A stretch of DNA of 64,000 nucleotides from Paramecium tetraurelia (GCA_000165425.1 CT868063.1:124001-188000), one strand, 5' to 3'; counted from the first letter of the stretch, positions 3,319 through 45,773 are shown. Notes: generated from the letters alone by a model not told the origin. Numbers and translations: made by a program.

Positions 3319-3489
3319 ATAAGATGCAATTGTTTTATATTTATCGTTAAACATTAAAAAAATGTATATTTAATCTGTCAAGAAATCTAAAACATGCCAT
3401 TTTATATAAAAAACCCAATTATTCACTTCATAAAATTAACATAAATCAATCTAAAAATTGGTCCGCTCACTAATTAATTAAATATTCAT

Positions 3490-6400
3490 ATGAGTTGGAA
3501 TACTAATAACCTTGAAGAAGGTGAAGTTAAACCAGTAGATTCCACTCCAGTATGGGGCGGTGAATAAAACGCAGGTGGATAGTAAATAGATGAAGTGAAA
3601 AAAACTTAAGAGCCTTAATGGGGGCAGGATGAGAAAAAGGAGAACTAAGAAACTAATGCTTAAAATGGAACGGCAGCAGAATCAGGAGGTTGGGGAAATC
3701 AACCACAGCAGCAATCATCATCTTGGGGAGAAACTAAAACAGATAATAATGATAATGCATGGGGATCTGGAACTACAGGGTTTGGAAGCACATCAACAGG
3801 AGACAATGGAGGTTCATCTTGGGGAGGTGGTTCGACGTCTTGGGGAAATGGAGGAAGCTCAGATAATAATTTTTAATCAGATCGACCTAGAGGCAGAGGA
3901 AGAGGTGACAGAGGAGATCGAGGAGGTGGTTATAGAGGAAGAGGTGATAGAGGTGGAGAAGGTTTTAGAGGCAGAGGAGATGGATTTAGAGGAAGAGGAG
4001 ATAGAGGAGATCGAGGAGGATTTAGAGGAAGAGGTGATAGAGGAGGAGACAGAGGTGATCGAAGAGGAGGTTTTAGAGGTGGAAGAGATAATGGTGGAAG
4101 TTGGGGTGGCAACTCAAGTAATAACAACGGAGGAGGAAATAGTTGGGGAGGTAATGCAGAAGGTAGCTCTTGGGGAAATTCAGACAACAAAGATAATGCT
4201 GGAGGTGGTTGGGGTAGTACTTCAACAAATGAATAACCAGCTCAATCAGGTGGATGGGGTAGTACAACTACAGAATAGCCAGCACAATCTGGAGGATGGG
4301 GAAATTCTACTGAATAACCAGTTCAATAAGCATCTGAAGGTTGGGGAAGTAAAACAGAATAACCTCCATAATAAGCAGAATCAAATTAAGGTGGATGGGG
4401 CACTACTACTGAATAATCAAACTAATAATCTGGTGGTGGTTGGGGATCGACAACTGAATAACCATAAAAATAATCCAACGGATGGGGAAATTCTACTTAA
4501 GAATAGCAACCTTAATAATCTGGAGCTGGAGGTTGGGGATCTTCTAATACTGAACAACCTGCATAGTCATCAGGAGGTTGGGGAGCATCTACAACTGAAT
4601 AACCTGCAACTACTGGAGGTTGGGGTTCTACAACTGAATAGGCAACTACATCAGGAGGATGGGGATCTACTACTGATTAAGCAGCATCTTCAGGTGGAGG
4701 CTGGGGAGGTTCATCAGATCAATAAAATGGTAACTCTTGGGGCGGAGGAGGATCTGGAGATGGACAGAGAGGAAGAGGTCGAGGAAGAGGAGATCGTGGA
4801 GATAGAGGAGGTTTCAGAGGTCGAGGAGATGGTTTTAGAGGAAGAGGAGACAGAGGTGGAGAAGGTTTTAGAGGTAGAGGAGATGGATTTAGAGGAAGAG
4901 GAGACAGAGGAGATCGAGGAGGATTTAGAGGAAGAGGTGATAGAGGAGACAGAGGAGATAGAAGAGGTGGATTTAGAGGAGGAAGGGATAATGATAATTC
5001 TGGCAATGGTGGAAGCTGGGGTGGATCATCAAATGATTAAGGTGGTGGAGGATGGGGATCTTCAACAACTGATTAACCTGCATCTAATGGAGGTTGGGGA
5101 TCTACTGCAACTGAATAACCTTAATCAAATGGAGGTTGGGGATCTACTGCTACTGAACAACCAGCTTAAACTGGAGGTTGGGGATCTACAGCTACTGAAA
5201 AACCTGCATAGAATGGTGGTTGGGGATCTACAGCAACTGAATAACCATAATAGAGTGGAGGTTGGGGATCTACAACAACTGAATAACCATAAGCAAGTGG
5301 AGGTTGGGGATCTACTGCTACTGAATAACCAGCTTAAAATGGAGGATGGGGATCTACTACTACTGAATAACCAGCATAAAATGGAGGATGGGGATCTACT
5401 GCTACTGAATAACCAGCATAAACAGGTGGTTGGGGAAGCTCTGATGCTCCATAATAATCTAATGGTGGTTGGGGAAGTAGTAATAACGATTAACAATAAT
5501 CTAATGGATGGGGCTCCAGTAATCAATAATCAAATGGAAATGGCGAAAGAGGAAGAGGTCGCGGCAGAGGAAGAGGTCGAGGTGGTGATAGAGGTGGTGA
5601 TAGAGGCGGAGATAGAGGATTTGATCGAGGATTTGATAGAAATAATAATAACAATTACAACAACAATAACAACAACCACAACAACAACAATAACAACAAT
5701 CATAATAACAATAACAATACTGAAAATGGTGGAGGAGATTTACCAACTGCTAAAAGAATCAAACCTAACCCTGTAATAATTACAATATCAGATGATGAAA
5801 ACGGAAAGGCATCTCCTCATTTCAGTGAGGATGAATAAGAAAAAGTAAATATAATTAATGAGGCATTGAAATAAACTGTTGATGCAAAATAGGTTTCATT
5901 GTAACTACCAGTATTGGATACTAAATTTTCACCTCTTTTTAATCCTGAGCCTGATCCAGATAGTTTAAAAACTGATAATTTATGTCACCTTAAGGGAGGT
6001 CTTTATCCTCATGAATAACATAAAAAGGTGAAGTTTGTATACACAGGAGGAATAAAGGTCGATTCAGATAGACAACCAGTTGTTAATTTAGTTACTTTTG
6101 ATAATGATTTAGAATTTATTGAATCTTGTCCTAAAGTTGATTTAGCTGAAAAATAAGGAATAGAAACTGTGTTTTTGAGTCCATTGATAAATGAATATAG
6201 AATTCTGAAAAATGAATTGGTGTAATTAAGATAAGAAGAGAGAAGAACATAAATTAGGAGATAATATATGGGAATAGTGGAAGGAATTGATAAAGAAAAT
6301 TAAGATTTAATATGTTAAGTTGGATTGGCATTGTTAAAAGAATAGAAAGCAATAAGATTAAAATATGGATTTCTATTTGCTGAATTAACACTCTTTCACA

Positions 6401-6566
6401 TTAAATAGATATTTGGAAATATGGATCAAGTAGAACATTAATCTTTGCAAGCAAGAGAAAAAGAATTGAGACCATCAAATGTAGTTTTTTCATAGTTTCC
6501 ATTACTTAGAAATGGTTGAATGATGTGCCAAAATTGAAATGCAGAAGAAGAAAAGAGTTGTTATGA
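3490..6566 (+). CDS. NOWA: Nowa1/Nowa2-like GW-repeat RNA-binding protein of genome rearrangement, about 1015 aa
   Basis: Frame-1 ORF MSWNTNNLEEGEVKP... with alternating GGWG and FRG/RGG repeat blocks, an Asn tract and a non-repetitive C-terminal domain; 29-nt intron 6481-6509 gives the end KWLNDVPKLKCRRRKELL*. Cannot tell NOWA1 from NOWA2. Confidence 0.88.
3886..4090 (+). repeat. NOWA FRG/RGG repeat block 1
   Basis: Purine-rich repeats encoding RGRGDRGG..FRGRG; near-duplicate of 4765-4990. Confidence 0.85.
4765..4990 (+). repeat. NOWA FRG/RGG repeat block 2
   Basis: Shares agaggtggagaaggttttagaggYagaggagatggatttagaggaagaggaga...gatcgaggaggatttagaggaagaggtgatagagga with block 1. Confidence 0.85.
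5050..5480 (+). repeat. 42-bp tandem repeats encoding GGWGSTATEQPAQ(N/T) inside NOWA
   Basis: About 10 units of ggaggWtggggatctac...actgaataacc at 42-nt spacing. Confidence 0.85.
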
Positions 6567-15345: not shown

Positions 15346-17672
15346 TCATTTCAAACTTAATAGATTGAGACTATTTTCAATGGCATGCTGATAGAGGGTA
15401 AAGAAAAGATTTGGGAACTGCTTGCTCCAGTAATCAAAGCAAGTTTCATCAGTTGGTCCTAAAAGTAATTTACAATCCTCTGTGAGTTAATGGTAATGAT
15501 TCTTTGTATTTCGGATTAGCTATCTTAAAATATTATATTACTCTAATTAGTTATTAGGCTTAGGTTTGATCATATCCTCTAATTTAGCATTTGAGTATCA
15601 TTCCGCATCGAGTACCCCAATTGTCTTTAAAAACAGAATTTGCTATGAATCTGTCATGAATCGAAACTTGATCGTTTGGTAAAGGGTATGTTTCAACATA
15701 GTCACTAAATTCGCAAATAAAAGATAGTTTCTTTTATTTGGTCCAGAAGTAAGGATGTGTAAAAATACATTAAGGATTACCGATTGATTGATCTAACAAA
15801 AGTTTCATCAATAAATCCTTAGTTTCCAATTCTTTGATATTAAATTTCTTGAATCTTTCCATTAGAAATTTCTAATCAATAGCTTATCTAAAATTATTAA
15901 GAGTATTACTTCTATGAGAAATCATCCCCTTTAGATAGTAAGAAATAAAAAATCAGGCCCACCTATTATAACATTGAATAATTTATTTTCTTAATAACTT
16001 TTTTATCATTAGGATTTTCTTAGTAGTAATCTGTCAAAGTCGATAGTCCAAAATCAGCTAATTTTATTTTTAAATCCTAACTGAATAAAACATTATCTGG
16101 AGTTATCCCATGATGCTAGGTATTATTTTCCAATAAGGTCTGTAAAGCATTCAATAGATCAAGGAAGATTTCCTTATAAAATTCTGGATTTTAAAGATTT
16201 TACTTAATATTTAATTTTTACGCTTCATTCAATTTTTAACAAGATTCATATTTAATAAATTCTCTAAGATTTATCATACATTTCTCCATAGCCAAATACA
16301 GACAATCATTTCTTTTTTCAAAGAAAAAGAGTTTATTTATTTAAGGAGAATTTAAAAGCATTTATTTAGATATTGACTCTTCAAGCAACTTCTCTAAATA
16401 TTTATTTTGCAGATTCTTAAGATTAATTTCTTTGACTGCTACCATTTTTCCCTGGAATATGCCTTCATATACACAAGTTCCATTCATTCCAATTCCCAGA
16501 ATTCGTTCTTTGTTTATTTAAATTTCCTTAGACTTTATGTATATATATTACACTTGGGGTTCCTTTACTATGACAACCTCTTTGGGCTTTTATTTTTTTT
16601 TAGATGACAGTAAAGGAATATAAGCAATCACCATTGATAACAATAATATGGATAAAAACTGATTAGTGTAATTTTCAACGACCTAACATTATTCTACTTT
16701 TTCAGATGTCTTTTCCTATTAATATATAACCAGTTAAGTTTAAAATTTGATCTTGTAGAATTAATTCAAGCATTGCTTAAATTGAGTATCTTTATAGACT
16801 CCCAAAGCATGAGGATCGGAATTAGAATCAAATTAACATTGTCCCTCTAGTTCACATTGATATTGATTATTAACTATAGACATTACTGTTAAACCAGTGC
16901 TCTTAGTGTGATCTTTAGAAAATAAGATGGAGTAGATCCCTTAGTCTGGTGTGTACTCGAATATTTCAAATACTTCATCATCCAAATAGAGATCAAGAGT
17001 TTTATTAGCCCATTGAACTTAAATTCCAGTGTTGGTTTTGTAAATTATAGTAGAATTAGAATATTTTGCTTAAGTTAAATCTCCACGTAAGTATTTGAGT
17101 AAAAAATTAATTTATATTCTAGAATTATGTTGTTGAGAGTCTTCATACTCCAAATCTGAAATAAACTTTTATTTAACATGAATTAGCACTCCCTTTTCAT
17201 ACATTTTCGGTTAACTCAAGAGCTGCTAAATGTCATATTGAGTCAACTCTTTTATATTTCCTGTGGCAATATCTAAAAAATACATTAACTCATTATTGTA
17301 GGTCAATGAGTTATGAAACATATTGCAAGTCTTAAACAGAATATCTAAATCTTCGGAAGGTATTTCCTAATTTAAAGAATCTCGTTACATAGAATCCTTC
17401 ATCGTAAAATAGAAATGAACCATCCTTGTATGGTTTCATAAAGTAAGTTCCATTCTGGATACCATCTGATTAGAGCGATATGCCCAGTTCTGATCTCCAT
17501 CTTATTTGTTGATACTTTAAGTCATATTTGTAAATCAGTCCATTCTTAGTCACAATCTAATGTATTACATTTATGATACTAACAACTTATCTTATAGCAA
17601 AGTGTCGTATTTACTATACAATTTAACGTCACCAGAGATGACAATTCCCAGGCACAAGAAGAAAACTAGCAT
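15346..17672 (-). CDS. IRE1: IRE1-like type I membrane protein: luminal domain, TM, pseudokinase, KEN ribonuclease
   Basis: Signal peptide; LLIVTKNGLIYKYDLKYQQIRW luminal motif; TM FLSILLLSMVIAYIPLL then KKNK; VYEGIFQGKMVAVK, LYLAMEKC, KLADFGLS; KEN GYDQTQAQQLIRLIRNTKNHYHQL...YWSKQFPNLF. Confidence 0.82.
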
Positions 17673-17706: not shown

Positions 17707-18025
17707 TCATGCACATTTCATACCTCCAACTTGCTCAATTACTACGTCAATTTCATCTCCCGTCTCCATTCCAATCTAATATATATCATATAACTCTAAC
17801 ATCAGCAGGGGTTTGAGTCTCCAAAATTCTTTCGCCGTCAAATAGGAATCTCACATTTTAGATTTGAAGCTAAAAAAGTTAGTTCATAATTACATTTTGT
17901 CTTGAGCAATAAGCATCCATTAATTTCTTGAATTGGGTTTGTTTCTTGATTTTGAAGAAAACCTCCTCTCCATCTTGAGACTTAACTTTTAAGTTCAAAT
18001 ATTCAGCTTATGATTGATCTGCCAT
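17707..18025 (-). CDS. SUMO: SUMO small ubiquitin-like modifier
   Basis: [40 protein letters not shown]...[36 protein letters not shown]; two tiny introns. Confidence 0.97.
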
Positions 18026-43963: not shown

Positions 43964-45648
43964 TCATAGCTATGATTTGAATTCTTCGAAAGAGATCTAA
44001 TCATCGTGATTCTTATCAAAGACATGGAAAACACTGGCAGCCTCATTTCTACTTATTTTACCGTCTATAGCCTATTTACAATTAGATTATATTATGTACT
44101 TTTAATAATTAGAAAAATTCTTCTTAATCAATAGCTCCATCACCAGACTTATCAAAACGTTGAAATATTTTACTGATATCTAAATTATTAATCCTTATAG
44201 TATTTTGTAGTTGTTTTAACACTCCAGATGCTCTTTAGGTAATTCCATCTTTTTAAGTTTGACCTGTGCCTTTACTGAGTACATACTGAAATTCAGGGAA
44301 ACTGACAGCACCATTGTTATCTCGGTCAAATTTTGTAAACATCAATTGAATTTCATAATCTTTAATTCCAGGCACAATAACTTTGATTAAATTGTAAAAC
44401 TCTTAATAGTCTAGATCTCCTTAATGGTTCTTATCATATTTATTGAATATTTAAGTAATATTCATGTTATTAGCCTTGATTACAGCCTAAATATCTTTAA
44501 TAATATGTCCTGCTCTATCATTGAGATCAGAGAAATCAAATTCTGTGAATAGTTTTTAAAACTCAATGTAATTAACGATTTGATCCTTACCACAGATCCT
44601 TGTGAACAATGTTTAAATTTCATATTGAGTAGTATTTGGATCAACGGCCAAAATGAGTTCTTTAAATTCCTTAGCATCTAAAATATTATTCTTGTCTTTA
44701 TCGAATCTTTGAAAAATGAAATGTGGATCAATGTTATTTTCAGTAACAACCTCCTGCATCTTCCTTAAGATCTTGATACATTATTAGGGCAATTCATAAT
44801 TTTGTTTCTACTACATTTGTCCAGATTATTTCATAGTAAAAATTGGATGAGTGAAAATTTCGTTCCATCCAATTCTATTGGCCTCCTCAATCATCAAGCA
44901 CTTTTTAATAAAATCCTTAGAATTTTCACTGATGGGTCTTTCATAAGGAAATCTTAAAGGCTAAGTCTTGATACTCCTAAGAAGACTGTTCATGTCTCTG
45001 CAAGACCAGGCAGTTTTACCAAAAAGTATTTCGTAATACATCATCCCAATAGACCAGATGTCACTTTTGGCAGAGTATTGGTGTTTATTTAAAATCTGAG
45101 GAGACATATATATAGGAGTGCCAACACATTCCCTGAGCAGTTATCTCCCTGTTATATCAACTTTAGTAGCGAAACCAAAATCAGCCACTTTATATACATT
45201 ACTTTTGACTAAACAATTTTCAGGTTTTATATCCCGATGAATGTAGTTATGAGACACCAAATCCTTGAATCCATTCATCAATTATGCAAGTACTTCTATA
45301 GCCTATTACTCCTATATGTGACCCTTTTTGTGCATCACAGATCTGAGATCTGAATCACATAATTCTATGGCCATATATGTCTGTTATTTATTGCCAAATA
45401 CATCAAGCATTCTAACCACATTAGGTGAAGTCAAGGTTTACATTACTTTAATTTCGTTCTTTAGTGAGTCAATCATAAACTAATCTTAGAATAACTTCAT
45501 ATCCAAAACTGAAAATGAATGAGAATCAAATACTTTTTAAAGCTACAATTTCCCCTGTTTTTATATTCTTAGCCTTGTATACACTACCAAAACTGCCTGC
45601 TCCTAGAAATCCCTTCTTGTCATATTAATAGTTCTCTATGGTTTACAT
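43964..45648 (-). CDS. Ser/Thr protein kinase with C-terminal EF-hands
   Basis: LGAGSFGSVYKA, HRDIKPEN, DFGFA, GTPIYMSPQI; EF loops DKNHQGDLD, DRDNNGAVS, DKSGDGAID, DKNHDDQIS. Confidence 0.92.
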
Positions 45649-45773
45649 TATTAATTGAATATATCAAATTTTATTTTAATGAATTTAATATCAAGATTGA
45701 GATATAAGCTACATTATGTTATTTGTTGGATATAGTTTTTATTAAATAATTTTTTATTAGATATTCCTTAAAC

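Follow-up and report, generated by a model that had tools for sequence, protein, structure and literature searches.

The gene on the minus strand at positions 15346..17672 of the analysed window (the whole stretch of 64,000 nucleotides from Paramecium tetraurelia, GCA_000165425.1 CT868063.1:124001-188000) encodes, judging by its sequence, a conserved form of IRE1 that is specific to its lineage and has a kinase module resembling that of RNase L; it holds neither the kinase signature of IRE1 nor the sensor of RNase L. The favoured reading is that of a phosphorylation-independent RNase of the ER with a pseudokinase switch and a probably decay-type output, and the probability of this whole chain is put at about 0.5. 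The role of the IRE1 kinase has been debated for years, and this gene offers a natural test of its purpose: a lineage appears to have fixed the loss of the kinase in a sensor-bearing IRE1 and to have retained it through a deep duplication, with tightened selection on the RNase. RNAi in Paramecium and a recombinant cytosolic domain would make it a tractable system for the switching on and off of IRE1 without phosphorylation. It also parallels the transition from IRE1 to RNase L, and offers a way into the ER-stress response of ciliates. The surprise is tempered, however, because pseudokinases make up ~22% of the Paramecium and Tetrahymena kinases (a passage of bioRxiv 10.1101/168187), and because RNase L already pairs a pseudokinase with a KEN domain.

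IRE1 has been classed as an ancient family that occurs in chromalveolates (in part of PMC3218828), with KEN motifs described as mostly conserved (in part of PMC3710099), and in the relevant sections of PMC10463195 it serves only as an outgroup. The literature searched, which took in few subscription journals, gave no description of a ciliate IRE1, of a naturally kinase-dead, sensor-bearing IRE1, or of a ciliate ER-stress response. The term "IRE" is absent from the main text of the Stentor kinome (bioRxiv 10.1101/168187) and from the searched supplements of an Ichthyophthirius paper. Supplements, kinase databases or subscription papers may nonetheless already carry the Paramecium genes as IRE-family pseudokinases.

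Gene structure, transcription and domain architecture

The gene lies in an AT-rich region and comprises five exons (17672-17580, 17556-17389, 17366-15910, 15887-15542 and 15519-15346, all on the minus strand). Once its four GT..AG introns are removed, the frame runs under genetic code 6 from the ATG at 17672 to the TGA stop at 15346 with no internal stop, giving a protein of 745 residues. It corresponds to the 745-residue P. tetraurelia record GSPATT00007000001 / A0CDC2 (P0004), with 100% identity over exon 3, which carries the name "protein kinase domain-containing protein". Intron 1 (23 nt, 17557..17579) is placed by its GT..AG borders and frame logic. The three remaining introns, of 22 nt each (intron 2, 17367..17388; intron 3, 15888..15909; intron 4, 15520..15541, which separates the loop carrying the Tyr from the R-N-x3-H helix), are supported by the splice model and by a contig of run X3, taken as RNA by the tool's guess, which lacks these 66 nt and is otherwise gapless. 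The contig ends at 17556, the edge of exon 2, and splicing is thus directly seen for introns 2-4 only.

Stranded reads from runs X20 and X21, of which portions of 33% and 42% were read, come from the same strand as the adjoining minus-strand SUMO gene. They cover the IRE1-like gene at a depth of 0-6, with several empty bins, versus 12-228 over the SUMO gene, and therefore indicate low-level transcription. The IRE1-like gene is real, transcribed and spliced, with low expression; a pseudogene or frameshift artefact is ruled out by the splicing, the open frame and the existence of nine homologues.

The SUMO gene (Pfam Rad60-SLD; 17707-18025, minus strand) is highly expressed, and read depth drops ~50- to 100-fold across the boundary between both genes. 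Only 34 bases separate its end from the downstream IRE1-like ATG, which implies that the promoter of the IRE1-like gene is tiny or overlaps the SUMO 3' end. Minority variants at window positions 17966 and 18008, in 11-31% of the SUMO RNA reads, are most simply explained by cross-mapping from a SUMO paralogue.

The protein follows the domain order of IRE1. A hydrophobic N-terminus (residues 1-14, 17631..17672), predicted as a signal peptide from hydropathy only, precedes an IRE1-type luminal domain of ~300 residues (~27-322, 16662..17594) with an invariant sequon, N191-x-T193. A single transmembrane helix (323-341, 16605..16661; hydropathy ~2.1, helix 323-340 in the structure model) and a basic linker lead to a kinase fold (~369-621, 15743..16523; Pfam PF00069), followed directly by a KEN (HEPN-type) RNase domain (622-745, 15349..15742; Pfam PF06479). 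HMM searches, proposed as a check in the initial annotation, returned both cytosolic domains (Pkinase, E 2e-15; Ribonuc_2-5A, E 4.5e-19), and the best Foldseek and VIA matches are IRE1. All these features lie on the minus strand.

Nine homologous proteins were collected from five species of the Paramecium aurelia complex, and they fall into two paralogue clades ~50% identical to each other, A (P0004, P0005, P0010 and P0011) and B (P0006-P0009 and P0012), both of which are kept in four of the five species. P0007, the P. tetraurelia protein of clade B, differs from the other eight over its first ~60 residues and has no signal peptide; its N-terminus is probably a wrong gene model, and it was excluded from the luminal profile and from N-terminal identities. 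By hydropathy only, type I topology with one transmembrane helix is conserved: 9/9 proteins carry a single internal hydrophobic stretch ahead of the kinase, and 7/9 a hydrophobic N-terminus.

The Pfam search gave no match for the luminal part at the cut-off used. Nevertheless, a profile of the Paramecium luminal N-terminal half aligned with 39 canonical IRE1 luminal regions over 133 columns (hhalign probability 90.8%, score 50.8, E 1.2e-6), against scores of at most 18.7 for 30 shuffles and 14.5 for the reversed profile, and the luminal HMM reached E 8e-8 to 2e-5 for eight of the nine proteins. By these profile comparisons, in which the match is confined to the N-terminal half of the domain, the luminal sensor is homologous to those of IRE1. 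Exactly five luminal cysteines (residues 101, 258, 264, 286 and 314; window 16662-17366) are invariant in the nine Paramecium proteins, and six Stentor-type proteins hold between none and two. This odd number leaves one cysteine free or available for an inter-chain bond, and the set is a possible redox or dimer feature.

The initial annotation had also called for structure prediction. The model, built on a 138-sequence alignment and leaning on canonical IRE1s, reaches a mean pLDDT of 73 (mostly 80-96 in the cytosolic part, and within the kinase fold outside residues 521-550) and is nearest to human IRE1 (6w3k; Z 29.8, rmsd 3.6, 345 aligned), followed by RNase L (Z 26.1, rmsd 4.6, 334 aligned) and by plain kinases (Z up to 21.9). 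Luminal residues 239-280 and 299-322 score below 50, and the luminal fold was therefore not judged by structure. An earlier fold from nine sequences (pLDDT 39) was discarded, and an atlas lookup gave IRE1-type and kinase clusters only, with no structure.

Lost catalytic residues and a preserved ATP pocket

The catalytic loop reads HHGITPDN (residues 505-512, 16092..16115, minus strand), in which the catalytic Asp is replaced by G507 and the Lys by T509, while N512 is kept. As first noticed from the sequence, neither catalytic residue is there, and the comparison extends this to the whole lineage: HHG stands in place of HRD in all nine Paramecium proteins, and the catalytic Asp and Lys occur in none, positions 509 (T/D) and 511 (D/E) being variable. 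Among 257 non-Paramecium homologues, each longer than 300 aa, the Asp is found in 253, the Lys in 253 and the full HRD in 247. The four exceptions for the Asp include P0018, which was misaligned here and is canonical when aligned otherwise; the true losses are P0074, P0141 and P0246, none of which belongs to the luminal-domain matches. Further KEN proteins with altered catalytic loops were noted (P0013, P0074, P0094, P0110 and P0141), and such proteins include a tandem kinase-KEN repeat from Rumex, an ankyrin-free Acytostelium protein of 1349 aa and a bivalve protein.

The activation segment (15969..16046, minus strand, intron-free) has evolved rapidly and has been shortened, and, as the initial annotation had observed, no GTxGWxAPE motif follows DFG. 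The GxxGWxxPE motif and the αF Asp are absent, and the APE-like Glu, the αF Asp and the RP-motif Arg have been lost together in the Paramecium proteins. There are 31 residues from the DFG Asp to the αF Gly, versus at least 42 in 255 of the 257 homologues, which makes the segment ~12 or more residues shorter than the canonical one. A hidden intron that would restore it is ruled out by the X3 contig, which shows no further gap. None of the nine proteins holds HRDxK and an activation segment with an APE-like motif, the marks of a canonical kinase, so the protein is classed here as a variant derived from IRE1 and not as a canonical IRE1 kinase.

The ATP-binding elements, on the other hand, are kept. 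VAVK (396-399, 16431..16442), with the β3 Lys399, and DFG (525-527, 16047..16055; DLG in clade B) remain, as the initial annotation had noted, both on the minus strand, and K399, N512, D525 and G527 are invariant in the nine proteins. The Gly-rich loop was described at first as reduced (LGMNGT), but this was a misreading: the actual sequence, LGIGMNGT, holds a complete GxGxxG (G378-x-G380-x-x-G383; 16476..16499, minus strand), with G378 and G380 in 9/9 proteins and G383 in 7/9. An intact loop makes nucleotide binding more likely than was then implied, and binding by the Paramecium pseudokinase is plausible from its residues. In the αC region, the Paramecium proteins carry a five-residue insertion, and the candidates for the αC Glu are E412, E416 (invariant) and E417. 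The IRE1 RNase requires a back-to-back dimer, with an N-lobe contact through R594/D620/R627 (part of PMC4536996); the position of K394 is basic in 8/9 Paramecium proteins and that of K432 in 9/9, and the Asp equivalent of human D620 is not clearly kept.

The KEN site, its conservation and its origin

The Y-x12-R-N-x3-H spacing reported for the KEN domain holds across the junction of intron 4, with Y678, R691, N692 and H696 invariant in the nine Paramecium proteins. The yeast catalytic set is H1061, Y1043, R1056 and N1057, and its helix-loop element binds stem-loops (passages of PMC3149027); yeast numbers were counted along the 3fbv/2rio alignment and are consistent with the residues named in papers. 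The RNase-inactive yeast structure 3sdj carries its altered residue in the alignment column of H696. The description of the RNase site as intact is right for the four catalytic residues, but not for their surroundings, where two changes are common to 9/9 proteins. A threonine, T693, takes the position of human K907 (yeast K1058), which is a Lys in 236/257 homologues and a different residue in a few others. The helix-loop element, in turn, is three residues shorter (W-to-Y spacing of 14 versus 17 in 241/257 homologues), and Q674 and I675 replace yeast R1039 and Y1040. Hence the pair of features expected of IRE1, the pocket Lys and a full-length helix-loop element, is lacking.

K907A is used as an RNase-dead mutant of human IRE1, and RNase L is not known to have a Lys at this position. 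K907 lines the RNase pocket and is the Schiff-base site of aldehyde inhibitors (in part of PMC7914947), and RNase L is insensitive to salicylaldehydes (in part of PMC3069474). With T693 at this position, K907-dependent aldehyde inhibitors of the RNase, such as 4µ8C and its kin, are predicted to fail on the Paramecium protein.

Identity between clades A and B is highest in the KEN core (residues 676-700), the most conserved part of the protein (0.90, 21 of 25 positions invariant), and decreases through the KEN domain (~0.65), the luminal N-terminal half (0.59), the N-lobe (0.54) and the C-lobe (~0.45) to the activation segment (0.23). Compared with canonical pairs, Paramecium A-B pairs are more conserved in the KEN domain (~0.64 versus 0.52) and less so in the C-lobe (~0.43 versus 0.57) and from the catalytic loop to DFG (0.38 versus 0.71). 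The identity of the KEN domain minus that of the C-lobe amounts to +0.21 in Paramecium (range 0.18-0.25) and to -0.05 (SD 0.07) in canonical pairs; even the smallest Paramecium gap, 0.18, is reached by only one of 2458 canonical pairs matched for overall identity, a comparison that is descriptive and no p-value, given the shared ancestry of the pairs. Selection is judged here from protein identity only.

Whether orthologues hold a canonical HRD, a test posed by the initial annotation, depends on the lineage: within Paramecium none of the nine does, whereas the IRE1 of Stentor coeruleus (SteCoe_9478, P0167) and its 20 relatives keep it in 20/21 cases. The loss is thus lineage-specific rather than ciliate-wide and, being common to 9/9 orthologues and paralogues, does not reflect a single copy under relaxed selection. 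No IRE1 from Tetrahymena, Oxytricha or a non-aurelia Paramecium was identified among the collected homologues, and a metagenome scan produced 376 pattern matches with no confirmed relative. In FastTree and in a quick IQ-TREE search, Paramecium forms an unplaced long branch, with a very long stem of 1.31+0.62 changes per column. When Paramecium was constrained to join the Stentor group, the log-likelihood of the tree rose by 19.8 units (p-AU 0.81; 42 of the 96 rows used, ambiguous columns dropped); for these sequences the AU test does not reject a ciliate clade, nor does it demonstrate one. On the simplest reading of the sequences, an IRE1 passed down vertically would have lost its catalysis ahead of the A/B duplication.

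Proposed mechanism, known relatives and alternatives

Under the favoured reading, the IRE1 of the Paramecium aurelia lineage would have evolved into a natural pseudokinase-RNase. Homology and topology suggest that this type I membrane protein is located in the ER. By analogy with IRE1, stress in the lumen or the membrane would cluster the luminal domains. The kinase fold is almost certainly unable to transfer phosphate, having lost both catalytic residues (Asp and Lys), its APE-like motif and at least 12 residues of the activation segment, but it is likely to bind ATP/ADP-Mg through the Gly loop, K399, N512 and D525, and may work as a switch between conformations and as a surface for dimerisation. 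The KEN site would then be assembled when two molecules pair back to back, with Y678, R691, N692 and H696 very probably cutting RNA. The decay of ER-bound mRNAs, as in RIDD, is somewhat favoured as the main output, with a specificity that, given the remodelled helix-loop element, presumably differs from that for the XBP1/HAC1 stem-loop. An autophosphorylation timer would be missing, and shut-off would then have to depend on release in the lumen, on nucleotide levels, on weak expression or on turnover. T693 and the altered helix-loop element, the αC insertion beside an uncertain D620 equivalent, and the thin read coverage weigh against this reading.

The proposal of a phosphorylation-independent ER RNase goes back to the initial annotation, and a pseudokinase and a conserved KEN domain on an IRE1 scaffold, together with a yeast precedent, argue for it. 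The precedent is Ire1(D797N,K799N), which likewise loses both catalytic-loop residues while keeping the nucleotide-binding and RNase residues. Sections of PMC3082176 describe no kinase activity, an ADP-stimulated RNase and a failing shut-off, and sections of PMC7904763 an over-reaction to weak stress; taken together, the engineered kinase-dead protein cuts RNA, does not shut off properly and is harmful under stress. Unlike this mutant, the Paramecium form is natural, is fixed over two paralogue clades and has lost its activation segment further, and it must have solved or avoided the shut-off problem.

IRE1/ERN1 itself (yeast Ire1p and human IRE1α; PDB 3fbv, 2rio and 6w3k) provides the best sequence and structure matches, and shares the signal peptide, luminal domain, single transmembrane helix, kinase fold and KEN Tyr/Arg/Asn/His. 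It differs from the Paramecium protein, in which the HRD Asp and Lys and GxxGWxxPE are absent, the activation segment is at least 12 residues shorter, the αC region carries the five-residue insertion, Thr occupies the K907 position, the helix-loop is shorter and five luminal Cys are invariant. RNase L (PDB 4oav, 4o1p and 6m11) resembles it in pairing a pseudokinase with KEN (Z 25-26), and nucleotide binding as in the RNase L pseudokinase is plausible for the Paramecium protein, whose ATP/Mg residues are kept and catalytic ones lost. However, RNase L is a soluble protein that senses 2-5A through ankyrin repeats, whereas the Paramecium protein has an IRE1 luminal domain and a transmembrane helix and gave no ankyrin match in the Pfam search. 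RNase L has been described (in part of PMC4718504) as a nucleotide-binding pseudokinase-RNase with a non-canonical activation loop and substrate sites. The Stentor coeruleus group (SteCoe_9478) shares the compact luminal-transmembrane-kinase-KEN layout of ~700 aa; unlike Paramecium, it keeps HRD (20/21), the Lys, a full activation segment and the Lys at the K907 position. Arabidopsis IRE1C (AT3G11870), which carries the UniProt label "inactive", is likewise a divergent isoform. The luminal domain kept in Paramecium is absent there (passages of PMC6883098 and PMC8850647), and the PMC6883098 passages do not touch on its kinase residues.

The suggestion of a decay-only, RIDD-like enzyme gains slight weight from E632/K694, an acidic/basic interface pair at yeast positions 992/1059 as in the RIDD-only Ire1 of S. 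pombe, which is regarded as an active kinase. The pair also occurs in 123/257 homologues. Promiscuous cleavage has been associated with it, but it is found in most species, human IRE1 included (in part of PMC8104961), and since human IRE1 splices too, it is no proof of decay alone. The same interface pattern fits enzymes that do both, and with the intact KEN set it leaves some room for a kinase-dead IRE1 that splices a ciliate mRNA, of a bZIP or another gene, by excising an unconventional intron. Ire1(D797N,K799N) cleaves an Xbp1 fragment at the wild-type rate (PMC3082176, in part) and splices HAC1 in cells (PMC7904763, in part). The helix-loop element, however, is short, the R1039/Y1040 and K907-position residues are changed in 9/9 proteins, and no HAC1/XBP1-type target of ciliates was found in the literature searched, which makes splicing unlikely. 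These same changes, T693 and the remodelled element, along with the very long stem branch (1.31+0.62), could instead point to a stress-regulated scaffold or RNA-binding module with both activities weak or lost. This is improbable, as the KEN core keeps an A-B identity of 0.90 with 21/25 positions invariant, all four catalytic residues survive a deep duplication, and a few other homologues are also without the Lys.

The retention of both clades in 4/5 species would suit an accessory subunit, either in an A/B heterodimer or activated by a kinase-active partner, a canonical Paramecium IRE1 or another kinase, through pairing or phosphorylation, and kinase-dead yeast Ire1 can be phosphorylated in trans (a passage of PMC3082176). 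Against such a partner, no Paramecium-named canonical IRE1 appears among the 120 matches listed of 1042 to Stentor IRE1, and of the 150 profile matches listed of 2022, P0009 alone could be recognised as Paramecium, rows being mostly nameless in both cases. The segment that would receive the phosphate is, moreover, shortened and poorly conserved, and an accessory role is rather improbable. An atypical but active kinase would agree with the full set of ATP-binding residues, and some predicted pseudokinases turned out to be active (PMC4718504, in part). In this case, however, a Gly stands for the catalytic Asp and the loop offers no conserved acid close to it, the Paramecium proteins have jointly lost the APE-like Glu, the αF Asp and the RP Arg, and the stretch from the catalytic loop to DFG evolves fast (0.38 versus 0.71), so that activity is extremely doubtful. 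The favoured phosphorylation-independent RNase may be extended, tentatively and against the odds, to a view in which the HHG-type proteins are the sole IRE1s of the aurelia lineage, having given up phosphorylation and arrived convergently, at the ER membrane, at the logic of RNase L. A pseudokinase that senses nucleotides and a novel luminal module with cysteines would there gate an RNase whose remodelled helix-loop element and pocket would bind RNAs other than XBP1/HAC1-type stem-loops, with a phosphate-free shut-off.

Elsewhere in the window, a long open reading frame on the plus strand (3319-6519) carries many GW repeats and RGG boxes with no Pfam match, and appears to resemble the ciliate Nowa GW-repeat proteins of genome rearrangement. 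A kinase on the minus strand (44043-45773) holds C-terminal EF hands and intact HRD and DFG motifs, in an ordinary CDPK-like architecture.
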